A stretch of DNA of 64,000 bases from Pseudomonadota bacterium (GTDB lineage: Bacteria; Pseudomonadota; Alphaproteobacteria; SP197): NCBI GenBank assembly GCA_039028155.1, contig JBCCIS010000003.1, forward strand, positions 25,904 through 89,903. The letters are read 5' to 3'. Positions 2,209 through 28,803 of this stretch are shown here, in pieces. A program made the translations under genes and the position numbers. Numbering within the stretch: the stretch's first letter is position 1; every line of letters begins with the position of its first letter. The notes under the pieces are model-generated. The model searched no databases. It saw nothing but the letters and a program-made list of their open reading frames with translations, and had not been told where the DNA came from.

Positions 2209-3084
2209 TCAGCCGGCGAACTTCGGTTCCGGCAGACCTTTGGCGCCCAGACCGGTGACCGCGTAAATGCCGCCGGCATCCGGTTTTGACGGCCTCAGCC
2301 CGTCAATCTCGTCACCGATCGACGTGACATAGAGCACGTCCATGTCGTCGCCGCCGAACGTCAGACTGGTGACCATCTCGATCGGCGTTTCGATCAGCTC
2401 GTCCAGACTGCCGTCAGGCGCGAAGCGCGCGATGCAGCCGGTTTCCGTGAAGGTCGTCCAGAGATAGCCGTCCGCGTCGATGGTCCCGCCATCGGGCGTG
2501 GCGTTATAGGGCCGGGTGTCGAGAAAAACGCGCCGGTTGGCCAGCTCGCCGGTCTCGATGTCGTAGTCATAGGCGTAGATCGTGTGTTTGTTGCTGTCGG
2601 CAAAATAGAAAATGCTGTTGTCCGGGCTCCAGCACGGACCATTGGCGCAAATGAACCCGCGGTCGACGACCGACCAGCTGAGATCAGGATCAAGCCGGTA
2701 GAGCGAGCCCTTCGGTTCCTTGAACGACAGGTCCTCGCTGCCGGCGAAGAAACGGCCGCGTCGATCGGCCTTGCCGTCGTTAATGGTCGTATCCGTTTTC
2801 TCCGGTTCGGGCTCCACGATGGTCTCGCAGGTGCCGGTGTCGAAGTCGAAGAAGTGGAAACCGCGATCCATTGCGATGACGGCGCCACCCTTCTCGCGCA
2901 ACGCCATGGAACCGCCGACATCACCGGGCAGTTCCCATCCGTCGATGTCACCCGAGCTGGGGTCGTACCGGAAAACGCCGGGTTGCAACAGGTCGAGCCA
3001 ATAAAGAGTACCGTTGTCGTGATCCCAAAGCGGTCCTTCACCGAGCCGGTAGCTTGCCGTGCCAATTCGTTCGTAGTTCACCAT
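2209..3084 (-). CDS. SMP-30/gluconolactonase/LRE-like lactonase (regucalcin family)
   Basis: The GEGPLWDHDNGTLYWLDLLQP motif and repeated beta-propeller blades are present. Start placed at the internal ATG (MVNYERIG); the outermost ORF codon is GTG. Confidence 0.75.
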   Translation of the reverse strand: MVNYERIGTASYRLGEGPLWDHDNGTLYWLDLLQPGVFRYDPSSGDIDGWELPGDVGGSMALREKGGAVIAMDRGFHFFDFDTGTCETIVEPEPEKTDTTINDGKADRRGRFFAGSEDLSFKEPKGSLYRLDPDLSWSVVDRGFICANGPCWSPDNSIFYFADSNKHTIYAYDYDIETGELANRRVFLDTRPYNATPDGGTIDADGYLWTTFTETGCIARFAPDGSLDELIETPIEMVTSLTFGGDDMDVLYVTSIGDEIDGLRPSKPDAGGIYAVTGLGAKGLPEPKFAG

Positions 3085-3261
3085 CGCGTTTCCACCCACC
3101 CGTTTTGGTCATGACATCGGCTATGCCGGCCGCACGCCGCATGACTCAAGTCTAGGTGGGCACCGGCGCCCTACCATGTATGAACAGCCATGCATCGTTC
3201 GCGGCATGCGATGTATTGGTTGAATGCGCGAACCCGAAAAGGGATTGGCGGACGAAAAAAC

Positions 3262-3758: not shown

Positions 3759-4439
3759 CTAGCCGTTGAGCAGCGCCTCGACGGCATCCTTTGAAGCGCC
3801 GGACGCCAGGCCGCCGCCGTAGACGAACCCGATCGCGCGGCGATCGAAATCGGTCAGCCAGTCGGCCGGGTCGTCCCATGACATGACGCTTGCGACGCCG
3901 TTGCCCGGCACGCCGACCAGGCCCAGGGCTTTCATCGTTTCGCGCGCGACACCGCGTCCGATCTGGGTCTCCTCTTTCGACGTCACGAACATCATCGCCC
4001 CGGCGATGCCGCGTTCGAAGCTGAGCACGGAGATCTGACCGAAATTGTCCTGCTCTTGTTGGGCGGCGATGAAGTCCCGGGTCTTCTGATCGCGTTCCTC
4101 GGCGGACGCTCCGGGGAAGAACTTGGCCAGCAGCTCGGCATGACGTCCCGCTGCCTCCAGAGTGTTGTTGGCGACGATGAAGACAATGTTGACGTCACCG
4201 CCCTCGCGGTATTCGGCTTTCAGCTCAGAGGCGTCGCGGATCTCGTCGACCAAGGCCTCCAGGCAGACGCGGCCGGCCTCGCTGTCATCTTCGGCGACGA
4301 CGAACTTCGGCACGCTCTCCCAACGCACCATCTGGCGCAGACCGAACTGACCGTCCGGCATTCTGGCGAACATCAAATTCAGCAGGGCTTCCCTCTCGTC
4401 TTCCGCGAAGTGGTGCCCAACAAGCGATGTGGTCGTCAT
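3759..4439 (-). CDS. Hypothetical protein
   Basis: 226-aa ORF with GC3-biased codons and no recognisable family motifs. Confidence 0.5.
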   Translation of the reverse strand: MTTTSLVGHHFAEDEREALLNLMFARMPDGQFGLRQMVRWESVPKFVVAEDDSEAGRVCLEALVDEIRDASELKAEYREGGDVNIVFIVANNTLEAAGRHAELLAKFFPGASAEERDQKTRDFIAAQQEQDNFGQISVLSFERGIAGAMMFVTSKEETQIGRGVARETMKALGLVGVPGNGVASVMSWDDPADWLTDFDRRAIGFVYGGGLASGASKDAVEALLNG

Positions 4440-4561: not shown

Positions 4562-5230
4562 ATGTCGGAACGCGTGTTACAGATGAGCGATCCCCTGCAC
4601 CAGTATCTTGTGGACGTCGCCGTCCGCGAACACCCGGTGCTGGCGGAGTTGCGTGAAGAGACGGCGACCATGCCCATGGGCATGATGCAGATATCGCCCG
4701 ATCAGGGCCAGCTTATGGCCATGCTGGTGCGCCTGACCGGCGCGCGCCGGATTCTAGAGGTCGGCACCTTCACTGGCTACAGCTCTCTGTCCATGGCGCT
4801 TGCCCTGCCTGACGACGGCTCGATCCATGCGTTGGACGTCAGCGATGAGTATACGTCGGTCGCCCGGCGACACTGGGAGAAGGCAGGCGTCGCCGACAAG
4901 ATCAGCCTGACCCTGGCGCCGGCGGCCGAAACTCTGCGCGGTTTCCTGGACGACGGCATGGCTGGCAGTTTCGATCTGATGTTCATCGATGCCGACAAGG
5001 AAAGCTACGATGCCTATTACGAGCACGGGCTGGAACTGGTGCGCGATGGCGGCGTCATTCTGGTCGACAATGTGCTTTGGGGCGGCTCGGTGATCGATCA
5101 CGCCAAACAGGACGCCGATACCGCCGCGATCCGCGCTTTGAACCACAAGCTCAAACATGACGAGCGGATCGACCTTACCATGCTGTCCATCGGCGACGGC
5201 CTTACACTCGCGCACAAGCGGGCATCGTAG
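4562..5230 (+). CDS. Class I SAM-dependent O-methyltransferase (family 3, caffeoyl-CoA OMT-like)
   Basis: The motifs ILEVGTFTGYSSL and FIDADKESY are typical of family-3 O-methyltransferases. Start set at the ATG preceded by GGATGAGGATAAC (RBS). The track ORF begins further upstream. Confidence 0.8.
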   Translation: MSERVLQMSDPLHQYLVDVAVREHPVLAELREETATMPMGMMQISPDQGQLMAMLVRLTGARRILEVGTFTGYSSLSMALALPDDGSIHALDVSDEYTSVARRHWEKAGVADKISLTLAPAAETLRGFLDDGMAGSFDLMFIDADKESYDAYYEHGLELVRDGGVILVDNVLWGGSVIDHAKQDADTAAIRALNHKLKHDERIDLTMLSIGDGLTLAHKRAS

Positions 5231-6401: not shown

Positions 6402-6953
6402 ATGCCGTTACAGGAGCTGTTCTTTTCGTTTTCCGGTCGCATCAACCGCGCGACGTTTTGGACCCGCGCGATGCCGATCCTGTTCGTCTACAGCATGATC
6501 ACCAATACGGTCGCGGCCATCGAAATCTATGAGACCGGCCAATACGGCGTCATCTCCATTGTCTTAAGCCTGATCGGGATTTGGCCGGCCCTGGCCGTAA
6601 ACGTGAAACGACTGCACGATCGCGGGCGTTCCGGATGGTTCATTCTGATCGGTCTGATCCCCATTGTCGGTCCGATCTGGCTGCTCATCGAAACCTGGTT
6701 CCTGGGGAGCAAACCCGAAGCCAACCGCTTCGGCGAGGTGCCGACGAACCATGCATCGAGCGGCGCCGTGATCGGCGCCATCGCCACCATCGTCATCGCC
6801 ATGATCGTCGCCGTCGCGGTCGTACTCTCGGTTGTCGACATCAGCGTACCCGCCGACATGGCCTACCCCGAAGCAACCAGCGGCGAGTCGTCGGTCGAAC
6901 CTGAATCCGTGATGCCGGACGATTCGGAGGCCGCCACGTCAACGTCGAACTAG
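6402..6953 (+). CDS. DUF805 (YhaH-like) inner-membrane protein
   Basis: N-terminal FSFSGRINRATFW and KRLHDRGRSGWFILIGLIPIVGPIWLLI motifs typical of DUF805. Multi-TM with an acidic C-terminal tail. Confidence 0.65.
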   Translation: MPLQELFFSFSGRINRATFWTRAMPILFVYSMITNTVAAIEIYETGQYGVISIVLSLIGIWPALAVNVKRLHDRGRSGWFILIGLIPIVGPIWLLIETWFLGSKPEANRFGEVPTNHASSGAVIGAIATIVIAMIVAVAVVLSVVDISVPADMAYPEATSGESSVEPESVMPDDSEAATSTSN

Positions 6954-25574: not shown

Positions 25575-25652
25575 GCTCTTCCCCCGTAAACTCGACAACC
25601 CGGGCGCCACGGCGCCATGGGCACATGGTCGATTACGCGGGGACAGCCTTCG

Positions 25653-26414
25653 ATGCCGAACAGAAAAGACCAGATCCGCGCGCTGTTGAAGAGTATCGAG
25701 ACCGGCGACCCCGGGCCTATCGCCGTCGTCAATCAGGAACGCTACATCCAGCATAACCCGCAGACCCATAAGGGCAGCGAGGGTCTGGAGGTGCTCTTCG
25801 AGCGCCTGTCGAAGACCTCGCCGCGCGTCAACGTCGTGCGCGCGTTCGAAGACGGCGACTTCGTTTTCGGCCACACCGAGTATGACTTCTCACGCTCGAA
25901 CATCGGTTTCGAAGTGTTCCGGTTCGACGGTGACCGCGTCGTCGAGCACTGGGACAACATCCAACAGCGCCAGGGCCCGAACCCGTCGGGCCGCACCATG
26001 GTCGACGGCGTGATTGAGTCGACTGACCGTGAGTTGACGGAGACGAACCGCGAGATCGCGCGCGCCTTTGTCGATGAGGTTCTCGTGCATCGCCAGTTGG
26101 ACACGCTGGAGAGCTACGTCAACGACGGATGTCTCATCCAACACGACCCGCACCTTGCCGACGGCGCCGAGGCGCTTCGTGCTGCACTTGAAACACGGTC
26201 GGAGACGGGTTTCGCGATCCAGTACGACCGCATCCATCGCGTCCTTGCCGAAGGCAGTTTTGTCCTGACCGTCAGCGAAGGATTCCGGAACGGCGTGCAC
26301 ACCTCATTCTACAATCTCGTGCGCATCGAAGACGGCAAAGTCGTCGAACACTGGAACACCGTCGAGGCGATCCCGCCACGCAGCGCGTGGAAGAACGACA
26401 ACGGCAAGTTCTGA
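25653..26414 (+). CDS. Tandem SnoaL-like/NTF2-like domain protein (predicted ester cyclase-like)
   Basis: Two repeated approximately 120-aa units, each ending in (V)VEHW(D/N), consistent with SnoaL-like polyketide cyclase folds. Confidence 0.55.
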   Translation: MPNRKDQIRALLKSIETGDPGPIAVVNQERYIQHNPQTHKGSEGLEVLFERLSKTSPRVNVVRAFEDGDFVFGHTEYDFSRSNIGFEVFRFDGDRVVEHWDNIQQRQGPNPSGRTMVDGVIESTDRELTETNREIARAFVDEVLVHRQLDTLESYVNDGCLIQHDPHLADGAEALRAALETRSETGFAIQYDRIHRVLAEGSFVLTVSEGFRNGVHTSFYNLVRIEDGKVVEHWNTVEAIPPRSAWKNDNGKF

Positions 26415-26423
26415 ACGACAGCT

Positions 26424-26639
26424 CTAGTCGAACGACTCCAGGTCCTCCGGCGTGGTTTCCATGGACGGCCAGCGCCAAAACGCCGCGACCCAGAACAGCA
26501 CGATGTTGGCGATAGGCACGTAGGCCAGCAGTCCCCACAACGGCGAGCGGCCCATCTTCTTCAATACCCAGAAGAACGGCAGGAAGAGGATGAGCCAAAA
26601 CATCAGCGTCCAATGGAGGATCGAGAGGACACCCATCAT
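26424..26639 (-). CDS. Small membrane protein (~71 aa, PLDc_N/DUF805-like motif), second gene of pair 1
   Basis: Internal start MMGVLSIL; contains WVLKKMGRSPLWGLLAYVPIANIVLFWVAAFWRWPS. Paralogous to the gene at 27878..28105. Confidence 0.6.
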   Translation of the reverse strand: MMGVLSILHWTLMFWLILFLPFFWVLKKMGRSPLWGLLAYVPIANIVLFWVAAFWRWPSMETTPEDLESFD

Positions 26640-26821
26640 GCGACCTCCCGCCGCCACGGCCGGTTCGCCAGAAGCAACAGCGCGATCGGCAGGCCGATGA
26701 TCGGTAGCAGCACGAAAAGGCTGAACGCCCATGAGGCGCCCGAACGCGCAAACATGATCGCGATCGGAATGCCAAACAGCACGTAGATGCTGATCATGTG
26801 AACAATCAGGAACAGCGACAT
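26636..26821 (-). CDS. Small membrane protein (61 aa), first gene of pair 1
   Basis: Two TM helices, MSLFLIVHMISIYVLFGIPIAIMFARSGASWAFSLFVLLPIIGLPIALLLL. Its stop overlaps the next start (ATGA). Paralogous to the gene at 28102..28299. Confidence 0.6.
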   Translation of the reverse strand: MSLFLIVHMISIYVLFGIPIAIMFARSGASWAFSLFVLLPIIGLPIALLLLANRPWRREVA

Positions 26822-26917
26822 CGCCTCACCTCCCTGGGGGGCACAAGTGTCGCGTCGAGGGCGCGCGGCTGTCCAGTCGGCTTGACACTCTATGCGACAA
26901 TATATAACATATACGTT
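26822..26917. promoter_or_regulatory. AT-rich divergent promoter/operator region of the ArsR operon
   Basis: TATGCGACAATATATAACATATACGTTATGG is strikingly AT-rich in a 65% GC genome. It contains the imperfect palindrome AACATATACGTT immediately upstream of the ArsR ATG. Confidence 0.5.
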
Positions 26918-27289
26918 ATGGAACTATCTCGTTATGAACAGGCACCGGCCAACCTGGACGCCGTGTTCTCAGCACTCGCCGATCCGACGCGCCGCGCCAT
27001 CCTGACCCGGCTGGCCGACGGTCAGGCCTCGGTCAACGAGATCGCGGCGCCGTTTTCCATGAGCCAGCCTGCCGTCTCGCGCCACCTGAAAGTCCTGGAA
27101 CGGGCCGGCTTGATCGAGCGCGATATCGACCAACAGCGCCGTCCGGCCCGCCTGAAGGCCGAGACCATGGCGGACGCCGTGGCGTGGCTGGAGCGTTTCC
27201 GTGCGTTCTGGGGCGCCAGTTTCGATCAACTCGACGACCTTCTGACCGATATGAAACGCAGCCATCAGAAAGACGAGGACCATGCCTGA
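26918..27289 (+). CDS. ArsR/SmtB family transcriptional regulator
   Basis: LADPTRRAILTRLADGQASVNEIAAPFSMSQPAVSRHLKVLERAGLI is the ArsR winged HTH. Start at the internal ATG (MELSRYE). Confidence 0.85.
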   Translation: MELSRYEQAPANLDAVFSALADPTRRAILTRLADGQASVNEIAAPFSMSQPAVSRHLKVLERAGLIERDIDQQRRPARLKAETMADAVAWLERFRAFWGASFDQLDDLLTDMKRSHQKDEDHA

Positions 27290-27785
27290 CACAGCCACGT
27301 ACGTTTTCGACCGCATGTTCGACGCGCCGCGCGCCATGGTCTGGCGCACCTGGACCGACCCCGAGCTTCTGGCCCGCTGGTACGGCCCGGGCGTCGAAAC
27401 AATCATTCACGGGTTCGACCTGAAGCCCGGTGGCGCATGGCTTAACGAGATGCGCTGGGGCGACAAATCCGACCGCAGCAAGATGGTGTTTCAGGAGGTC
27501 GTGCCCGAGGAGAAGCTGGTCTGGCACCACTCATCGACCGACGCCGATTGGAACATCGTCACCAATCCCATGATGGCCGACTGGCCGCGCGTGCTGCTGA
27601 CCACAGTGACGTTTGAAGACCAGGGCGCCCAGACCAAGGTCCGCCTGACCATGGTGCCGCTCGACGCCACCGAGGCAGAGATCGCCTGTTTCGCCGGCGC
27701 CATGGCCGGCATGGACAAGGGCTGGGGCAGCGGCGCCGACATTCTCGACACGATGCTCGCCGAACTTCAGGCAGCGGCCTCTTAA
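27282..27785 (+). CDS. SRPBCC/AHSA1 (activator of Hsp90 ATPase homolog-like) domain protein
   Basis: FDAPRAMVWRTWTDPELLARWYGP is the AHSA1/SRPBCC signature. It overlaps ArsR by 8 bp, the usual ArsR-AHSA1 pairing. Confidence 0.8.
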   Translation: MPDTATYVFDRMFDAPRAMVWRTWTDPELLARWYGPGVETIIHGFDLKPGGAWLNEMRWGDKSDRSKMVFQEVVPEEKLVWHHSSTDADWNIVTNPMMADWPRVLLTTVTFEDQGAQTKVRLTMVPLDATEAEIACFAGAMAGMDKGWGSGADILDTMLAELQAAAS

Positions 27786-27877
27786 GCGCCACCGCCAGAA
27801 CGAACATGACCGACGCACCTGGAGAGTGCGCCGGTCATGGATCTCAATGTCGACCCGGACGACGACCGGGCGATGCG

Positions 27878-28105
27878 CTAATCGAACTCGAGCGCGGTGT
27901 ACTGGTAGCCGTCGACCGACGGCCAGCGCCAGAAGGCGAAGACCCAGTACATAACGACGTTGACGAGGGGCACAAACAGCAGAACGCCCCACCACGGTGT
28001 GCGGCCCATCTTCTTCAAGACCCAGAAGAAGGGCAGAACGGGCAGCACAATAATGATCAACGCGACGACGATGAGCATGCCGCCAGCCATTGCGTCCGGA
28101 GTCAT
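27878..28105 (-). CDS. Small membrane protein (75 aa, PLDc_N/DUF805-like motif), second gene of pair 2
   Basis: PFFWVLKKMGRTPWWGVLLFVPLVNVVMYWVFAFWRWPS is nearly identical in pattern to pair 1. ATGA overlap with the upstream small gene. Confidence 0.6.
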   Translation of the reverse strand: MTPDAMAGGMLIVVALIIIVLPVLPFFWVLKKMGRTPWWGVLLFVPLVNVVMYWVFAFWRWPSVDGYQYTALEFD

Positions 28106-28299
28106 GCTCGCCTCCCGCGCGGTTCCCAGTCAGAGACCGCCAAAATCACGGCGGCAATCGGCAAGCCAATATAGGGAATGAGAACCAGCAGGCTCCATGC
28201 CCAGGTTTTGCCAATTCGGTTAAACATCACGGCAACGGGTATGCCGATCAGCAGATAGCCGAATATGGAAAAAATGATCGTTTCCATAGATATCCCCAA
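28102..28299 (-). CDS. Small membrane protein (65 aa), first gene of pair 2
   Basis: METIIFSIFGYLLIGIPVAVMFNRIGKTWAWSLLVLIPYIGLPIAAVILAV, paralog of the gene at 26636..26821. Confidence 0.6.
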   Translation of the reverse strand: MGISMETIIFSIFGYLLIGIPVAVMFNRIGKTWAWSLLVLIPYIGLPIAAVILAVSDWEPRGRRA

Positions 28300-28461
28300 T
28301 CACCCTTGGAAGCGGCGATTATCGCGGCTGATGGCCAAAACTGTCGTGTGACGCCCACTACATCCGTGCCTTTTGGGACTCTTTCGCGCTAGAGACCGTC
28401 GACAGGGCAGTTTTCGGCCTTCACGATACCAAAATAGCCCAAATCCGGAGGGATCAGCGCC

Positions 28462-28803
28462 ATGACCCAGCCTCTACGCTCCATCGTTAACGTTTATGAC
28501 GACACGTTTGGCCCCTATGACATGGAGGGGCCCGTGCAGGACGACATGAGTGTGTTGCTGGGCAGCTACAGCAACGACAGCAAGCGCGGGATCTACGTCA
28601 TGCGGATGCAACCGGGCGCGGAAACCATCGCCCACACCCACGGCTGCACCGAGGAGTTTCTGATCCTGGAGGGCGAGCTGATCGAGAGTGACGGCACCGT
28701 CCTAAAGCGCGGCGACCTCGTGACCTACGCCCCCGGCAGCCACCACAACTCCCGCACCGAAACCGGCTGTCTCCTGATCGGCTTCGATTGGGATCGTGCT
28801 TAG
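28462..28803 (+). CDS. Cupin domain protein
   Basis: Small beta-barrel with His-containing motifs (AHTHGCTEEF...GSHHN). Confidence 0.6.
   Translation: MTQPLRSIVNVYDDTFGPYDMEGPVQDDMSVLLGSYSNDSKRGIYVMRMQPGAETIAHTHGCTEEFLILEGELIESDGTVLKRGDLVTYAPGSHHNSRTETGCLLIGFDWDRA

Follow-up and report, generated by a model that had tools for sequence, protein, structure and literature searches.

Two pairs of very short genes stand on either side of an ArsR-family regulator gene and its AHSA1/SRPBCC-domain neighbor in the alphaproteobacterial contig JBCCIS010000003.1, which raises the question of what the four small proteins are and whether they form one system with the regulator. We addressed it in a 64,000-nucleotide stretch of this contig (hereafter the window). 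A preliminary description had proposed a conserved micro-operon of uncharacterized small membrane proteins duplicated around a stress or metal regulator. The micro-operon is indeed conserved, as the pair recurs in other phyla. We consider it fairly probable, judging from the sequences, that each pair is a copy of a widespread two-gene module whose products, designated A and B, act together as a heteromeric membrane hairpin complex, their most likely mode of action.

All four genes lie on the minus strand. Pair 1 comprises A1 (61 amino acids (aa); positions 26636–26821) and B1 (71 aa; 26424–26639), and pair 2 comprises A2 (61 aa; 28102–28287) and B2 (75 aa; 27878–28105). The length of A2 is counted from the ATG codon called by NCBI, and an alternative TTG start at 28299 would yield 65 aa; the NCBI annotation includes both A2 and B2 (AAF563_02495 and AAF563_02490). 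The two pairs of tiny open reading frames (ORFs) were thus recovered as previously described, together with their ATGA junctions, at which the stop codon of the A gene and the start codon of the B gene overlap by four nucleotides (nt; junction −4) in both pairs. A GGGAGG Shine–Dalgarno sequence is found 4–5 nt ahead of each B start, within the A gene, and A1 is itself preceded by a GGAGGT Shine–Dalgarno sequence. The paralogy of the two modules survives alignment, with 51% identity between A1 and A2 (E 1e-17) and 60% identity over 52 aa between B1 and B2 (E 5e-23). A motif common to all four proteins consists of a basic residue, G-x-(S/T)-x-W-W, a hydrophobic stretch and P-x-(I/V)-(G/N).

Three close relatives carry the whole block: an ENA contig (L001) and two alphaproteobacterial metagenome-assembled genomes (L003 and L004). 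The order cupin–A2–B2–AHSA1–ArsR–A1–B1–SnoaL is kept in the window and in all three, and the 4-nt overlap of pair 2 is present in the four genomes. Ratios of nonsynonymous to synonymous divergence (dN/dS) among these genomes range from 0.06 to 0.37 for the small genes, with changes mostly at third codon positions, a pattern resembling that of ArsR and AHSA1. The four small ORFs are real genes under purifying selection.

Homologs of these proteins are numerous. Searching with a B profile (E ≤ 1e-3) returned 1020 clusters at 50% identity, almost all of them 65–90 aa long, and a word-indexed search for the B type returned at least 1630 clusters at 90% identity. The B consensus reads ...P...IL-(R/K)-K-A-G-(Y/R)-S-G-W-W-x-L-x-x-x-V-P-L-V-N-x-I-M-L-W-V-F-A-F-x-R-W-P. 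The A and B profiles align with each other over their whole length (hhalign probability 98.8%, E 1e-16, 66 columns) and differ mainly in the second helix, where B harbors an invariant, mid-membrane Asn (P-x-V-N) and A a Gly (P-x-x-G).

We defined the module as an A-type ORF (P-x-x-G) directly upstream of a B-type ORF (P-x-V-N) on the same strand with a junction of at most 11 nt, and surveyed 46 species-level genome loci carrying a more distant B homolog. An A-type ORF sits immediately upstream of B, on the same strand, in 13 of the 46 (L007, L027, L029, L030, L032, L034, L035, L036, L039, L040, L041, L045 and L046), which span Alpha-, Beta- and Gammaproteobacteria and Myxococcaceae. Both window pairs, L001–L004, L062 (a syntenic relative discussed below) and these 13 loci share the same layout. 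Junctions range from −8 to +11 nt in the distant pairs and overlap in 10 of 15; L007 carries two tandem A–B pairs, an independent duplication. Six natural proteins (P0121, P0192, P0191, P0193, P0103 and P0012) carry both halves in a single chain, A then B, matching the gene order; in P0012 (568 aa), TPR repeats separate the A-type from the B-type hairpin. The conserved adjacency, the tight coupling and the same-order fusions suggest that A and B are two subunits of one complex. An AlphaFold2 model of the natural fusion P0192 (predicted local distance difference test (pLDDT) 60, predicted template modeling score 0.31) is too poor to be read either way. Clustering of the ORFs flanking the distant A–B pairs gave no conserved neighbors beyond the close relatives.

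Profile comparisons place A and B in the uncharacterized DUF805/DUF5684 superfamily, of which they appear to comprise only the conserved core hairpin. DUF5684 (PF18936; gathering score 27.4) is the best Pfam match of B2 (20.1 bits, E 1e-3) and is also matched by A2 (16.8 bits), in both cases below the gathering score and over profile positions ~5–41 of 81, or about half of the model; the same search at E ≤ 1 gave no DUF5684 match for A1 or B1. A2 further matches DUF805 (PF05656) with 13.0 bits (E 0.15, positions 46–100 of 111, gathering threshold 25.7), and no DUF805 match was obtained for A1, B1 or B2 at E ≤ 1. Weak matches are more frequent in the wider family: 17 of 37 B members match DUF5684 and 15 of 37 match DUF805 (best 8e-07). 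Several B homologs bear a precomputed PF05656 hit, many are named 'uncharacterized membrane protein YhaH (DUF805 family)' in IMG, and UniProt uses the DUF805 family name too. All four window sequences show the DUF805 core motif, namely a basic turn and G-x-S-x-W-W followed by L-I-P-x-(I/V)-G.

The window also encodes, at 6402, a DUF805 protein that the preliminary description had singled out and that is borne out as a full-length member (95.5 bits over positions 1–111). The B profile aligns with its residues 50–94 (E 5e-5, 66% probability) and the A profile does so more weakly (E 0.0026). The likeness of the small proteins to PLDc_N/DUF805 membrane proteins noted earlier therefore holds in part: the relationship to DUF805 is real but remote, and PLDc_N (PF13396) is absent from the families reported at E ≤ 1 for the four window proteins and at E ≤ 0.01 for a set of 37 B-type and 14 A-type relatives. 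A weak match to a cardiolipin synthase model of NCBIfam was seen for a single B member (6.5e-05); the NCBIfam search otherwise returned nothing meaningful for A or B, and none of the four window proteins scored above threshold. Our literature search found no paper mentioning DUF5684 and only incidental mentions of DUF805.

An AlphaFold2 model of B2, computed from 101 sequences, folds as a helical hairpin (pLDDT 84) with helices spanning residues 3–20, 23–32, 37–58 and 62–69, the last being a short C-terminal helix. The loop between the hairpin helices carries an average of +1.8/−0.1 charges and the N-terminal tail is net acidic. Given the basic turn, of the form (R/K)-(K/R)-x-G-x-(S/T)-x-W-W, and the positive-inside rule, the sequences suggest that A and B are two-helix membrane hairpins with a cytoplasmic turn and both termini outside. 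No sequence match to solved structures was better than E 0.96, and a Foldseek comparison of the B2 model with the PDB returned no match.

B-type hairpins are also found fused to C-terminal FHA domains in five proteins of 225–232 aa (P0229, P0230, P0263, P0295 and P0299). Together with the TPR-containing fusion, they suggest that the hairpin may also anchor signaling domains at the membrane.

The urease operon is the sole recurrent functional context that we observed for the B family. Of six high-scoring homologs that were sampled on long contigs, all but one were located within urease operons, downstream of urtBCDE–ureD. The same context was found in 4 of the 46 genome loci. Loci with B genes in urease clusters are L053–L058 and L066–L068 (B gene at ~3001–3230 or 4001–4210) and L011, L015, L016 and L023 (B gene at ~4929–5195). 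These urease-embedded B genes are lone genes encoding 67–78 aa in Hyphomicrobiales and Xanthobacteraceae-type genomes, arranged as urtBCDE–ureD–ureA–[B]–ureB–ureC or as ureB–[B]–ureC. The distant A–B pairs, for their part, have varied housekeeping surroundings, such as rlmN, argG and fnr. The window contains no urease genes, and a literature search for small ORFs inside urease clusters found nothing useful. In L067, a 71-aa gene called between urtD and urtE (330–545) comprises four tandem copies of MIPKSGYRFS(V/D)(E/V)(I/M)MRQQ and looks like a translated repeated DNA element rather than a real protein.

We then turn to the regulator and its partner, both encoded on the plus strand. The 123-aa product of arsR (26918–27289) is an ArsR/SmtB-family winged-helix regulator (PF01022 (HTH_5), 58.3 bits, cut-off 22; NF033788, 80.5 bits, cut-off 55) that scores 69.3 bits against the SdpR model NF033789, below its cut-off of 100. 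The following gene (27282–27785) overlaps arsR by 8 nt and encodes a 167-aa AHSA1/SRPBCC-domain protein (PF08327, 76.8 bits over residues 14–159, gathering threshold 22.1). The pairs do bracket this unit, but the divergent arrangement assigned to both in the preliminary description applies to pair 1, which faces arsR across 96 base pairs (bp), and not to pair 2, with which the AHSA1 gene is convergent. A cysteine site for metal or metalloid binding, such as a C-x-C in helix 3, is missing from this ArsR, whose 123 residues include no cysteine; nothing thus points to metal sensing, and the metal role once ascribed to the regulator is not indicated.

ArsR and AHSA1 occur near A and B only in the window, L001, L003 and L004; in none of the 46 distant loci was a homolog of either detected within 5 kb of B, even at E ≤ 0.1. 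A more distant syntenic relative, represented by L062 and L063, has the order A24 peptidase, cupin, [A–B], GumN/TraB and CoA ligase, in which a single A–B pair (L062 5819–6213; L063 ~850–1247) occupies the slot of A2–B2–AHSA1–ArsR–A1–B1–SnoaL in the window. No ArsR or AHSA1 was found within 6 kb and no SnoaL gene in the slot. The B protein of L062 is closer to B1 (61% identity) than to B2 (49%), yet the L062 −10 region, GAGATAATCGC, is similar to the one upstream of pair 2, GCGATAATCGC. Conversely, the ArsR–SRPBCC cassette exists as a self-contained unit with no A or B ORFs nearby, for instance on a plasmid of Microbulbifer, whose ArsR is 76% identical, and on pSymB of S. meliloti. A literature search on ArsR–SRPBCC found nothing useful. 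The functional tie between the pairs and ArsR–SRPBCC proposed earlier is not supported, as the pairs occur unlinked to ArsR in relatives, and the ArsR bracketing is probably a lineage-specific, incidental genome arrangement.

On pSymB (L065; CP140934.1 115361–118147), the ArsR–SRPBCC cassette is followed by a GFA-family gene and then by urtA, a gene of the urea ABC transporter. This proximity makes a second link of these gene sets to urea genes, which is possibly coincidental.

The upstream regions of the two pairs are distinct. On the plus strand, a sigma-70-like promoter site precedes arsR (26882–26919), with TTGACA at 26882–26887, a 17-nt spacer and TAACAT at 26905–26910 (10 of 12 matches). 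Its −10 element ends 7 nt before the arsR ATG and no Shine–Dalgarno sequence intervenes, which suggests that the arsR–AHSA1 mRNA is probably leaderless. A 16-nt near-palindrome, ATAACATATACGTTAT, at 26904–26919 overlaps both the −10 element and the arsR start codon. It lies within a 38-nt tract of 31.6% GC, compared with 62.8% for the window, and only 0.18% of 38-nt windows are equally AT-rich. The palindrome arms ATAAC...GTTAT are kept in the relatives around a variable spacer, and the sixth position has changed in a compensatory manner (ATAACA/TGTTAT in L001, ATAACT/AGTTAT in L004). The window has a single ATAAC-N6-GTTAT site, against 0.23 expected by chance when up to one mismatch is allowed. 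Conserved arms and a compensatory change are compatible with an operator at which a dimeric winged-helix protein controls its own gene. The AT-rich palindrome reported in the preliminary description is a genuine feature of the sequence, and ATAACATATACGTTAT is a candidate ArsR operator. No sigma-70-like promoter was detected for pair 1 in the A1–arsR intergenic region. Outside the arsR promoter, all four genomes conserve two blocks at 26846–26880, AGTGTCGCGTCGA and CTGTCCAG, which may correspond to an alternative-sigma-factor promoter or to the site of a second regulator.

Pair 2 shares its upstream region (28300–28400, read on the minus strand) with a divergent ChrR-like cupin gene (28462–28803). 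This region contains a sigma-70-like site, ACGACA-18-GATAAT (28347–28318), and an invariant block, GGCACGGATGTAGTGGGCGTCACACG, and it is far more conserved among the four genomes than the synonymous sites of the adjoining genes. Its sequence differs from that upstream of pair 1 and contains no ATAAC-N6-GTTAT site. We considered a regulatory RNA upstream of pair 2 and rejected it, as Rfam gave no match at E ≤ 1 over 26000–28800 and the RNA-fold signal was not unusual (z-score 0.14). The region therefore probably holds sites at which a regulatory protein binds. A terminator-like hairpin with a 15-bp stem (27805–27839, minus strand), situated where B2 and the AHSA1 gene converge, may end the pair-2 transcript. 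With a conserved promoter region and a terminator-like hairpin of its own, and without the palindrome, pair 2 would form an independent transcription unit.

Three further features of the block were noted. At the pair-1 site of L001 (7334–7729), a single 131-aa ORF is called; we rejected it as a natural fusion, since it results from an extra T in a T-run of A1. Because one T is added and the A1-like sequence is intact in the shifted frame, an assembly error is most likely, and this ORF is probably neither a pseudogene nor a true fusion. Synonymous divergence between the window and L001 is 0.38 for ArsR and 0.27 for AHSA1 versus 0.93 for A2, 1.60 for B2 and 1.26 for B1, and it agrees across all the genes against L003 and L004. 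The gap seen with L001, estimated from short genes and therefore noisy, may mean that the cassette has recombined or been transferred, or that the small genes have evolved faster in L001. Finally, B1 and a convergent SnoaL-like gene (25617–26414) end 9 nt apart (26415–26423), a gap too short to hold a terminator, so the two transcripts must either overlap or end within the opposing gene.

Several alternative explanations were weighed against the heteromeric module. Were the two pairs, ArsR and the SRPBCC protein parts of one stress- or metal-responsive system, with ArsR controlling the pairs and the SRPBCC protein binding a ligand, this would suit the gene order kept from cupin to SnoaL in four genomes, the mere 96 bp separating pair 1 from arsR and the conserved palindrome arms with their compensatory sixth position. 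We nevertheless regard such a system as unlikely, since the four genomes are closely related (ArsR dN 0.01–0.06), none of the 46 other species has an ArsR or AHSA1 homolog within 5 kb of B even at E ≤ 0.1, the syntenic L062/L063 locus contains a single pair and no cassette, and the cassette exists without A or B on the Microbulbifer plasmid and on pSymB. Moreover, pair 2 is convergent with the cassette and has a different, well-conserved upstream region devoid of the palindrome, and ArsR is cysteine-free. A more specific proposal, which we hold to be quite unlikely, is that A and B form an undescribed, widespread two-subunit 'split' DUF805-type complex, made of an Asn-bearing and a Gly-bearing subunit, with a specific physiological role in handling urea, ammonia or pH at the membrane, one copy of which would in this lineage be under a ligand-sensing ArsR–SRPBCC switch. 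What points to such a role is the repeated placement of lone B genes between ureA, ureB and ureC, downstream of a urea ABC transporter.

The size and strong hydrophobicity of the proteins, their adjacent and coupled genes, the duplication of the module and a very weak similarity of B2 to a Pfam holin family (E 0.2) would also be compatible with small-toxin modules, each pairing a membrane toxin or holin-like protein with an immunity or antiholin partner. This is a very improbable interpretation: A and B are homologs and can be joined in a single polypeptide, as one would not predict for a toxin–antidote couple; searches of PHROGs and PADLOC gave no match to a phage or defense family; the majority of relatives are lone B genes with housekeeping surroundings (urease operons, rlmN, argG); and the window has no mobile-element neighbors. 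As for chance open frames, GC-rich DNA could in principle supply them, and the window (62.8% GC) contains many long spurious ORFs on both strands, some of which overlap these genes. Yet the dN/dS values of 0.06–0.37 apply to the proposed frames, more than 1000 homolog clusters extend across phyla, the Shine–Dalgarno sequences are correctly spaced and NCBI annotates A2 and B2, so that the notion of four non-genes is scarcely credible and already effectively refuted.

The interpretation that we favor, a two-gene module encoding a heteromeric hairpin complex, must itself be set against observations that weigh on the other side. B occurs without A in 33 of the 46 distant loci (alone, or as two B genes as in L008), which makes A dispensable for the family. 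None of the four window proteins attains the gathering score of DUF805 or DUF5684. L062/L063 could represent either the ancestral state, with ArsR and a second pair gained in the window's lineage, or a deletion derivative that has lost them. In each of the four related genomes, pair 1 and arsR diverge from a common 96-bp intergenic region, an arrangement that makes local co-regulation of pair 1 and ArsR possible.

With these reservations, the heteromeric module would operate as follows. The stop/start overlap and the internal Shine–Dalgarno sequence would couple translation of the two genes and yield roughly equimolar amounts of A and B, which would assemble in the inner membrane as a heteromeric unit of at least four helices. 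As many genomes carry B only, B evidently can also work alone. In this lineage the module would have been duplicated, with the ArsR–SRPBCC cassette now sitting between the copies, and at most pair 1 might be under ArsR control through the shared 96-bp region. As for the biochemical role, we would guess at a structural or accessory subunit of the membrane and not at an enzyme.

Annotation covers small membrane proteins poorly, and most of them are uncharacterized. Our data add a large 'mini-DUF805' family, with more than 1000 clusters of ~70-aa proteins that Pfam mostly misses, and indicate that part of this family exists as a conserved heterotypic A–B pair or as an A–B fusion. They provide the DUF805/DUF5684 superfamily with a concrete, testable hypothesis, namely a heteromeric hairpin complex. 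The novelty is modest, as this is a paired form of a known but uncharacterized superfamily. For the window itself the practical outcome is negative, in that the ArsR bracketing gives no ground for postulating a metal or stress system.

Among known systems, the closest likeness is to DUF805 itself (PF05656; COG3152), which includes the E. coli inner-membrane proteins YhaH and YhaI. The shared core consists of a helix, a basic turn with G-x-S-G-W-W and a helix with L-I-P-x-(I/V)-G. Unlike DUF805 proteins, A and B are only ~60–75 aa long, lack the N-terminal third (the first helix and the G-R-I-x-R motif) and come as a heterotypic coupled gene pair or an A–B fusion, an arrangement of which we know of no description for DUF805. 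E. coli yhaH is required for infection by two phages (PMC12548472). This requirement is the sole phenotype that we found for DUF805, likewise an uncharacterized family. DUF5684 resembles the B type in particular, being the best, sub-threshold Pfam match for B2 and for 17 of the 37 B members over about half of the model, and it has the P-x-x-N version of the second-helix motif.

Two other comparisons concern gene arrangement. The SdpR–SdpI system, with its membrane-held ArsR-family autorepressor, resembles the window in having an ArsR-family regulator beside membrane-protein genes; in the window, however, ArsR is partnered by a soluble SRPBCC protein, neither A nor B is related to SdpI and the adjacency is not conserved. 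Small multidrug resistance (SMR) proteins of the EbrAB and YkkCD type consist of two paralogous small membrane proteins encoded by adjacent, often overlapping genes that form a heterodimer, and some of their relatives are homo-oligomeric singletons. They offer an analogy to A and B only, with no sequence relationship and no indication of a transport function. SMR proteins have four helices each and paired SMRs adopt opposite topologies, whereas A and B are two-helix proteins predicted to share one topology.

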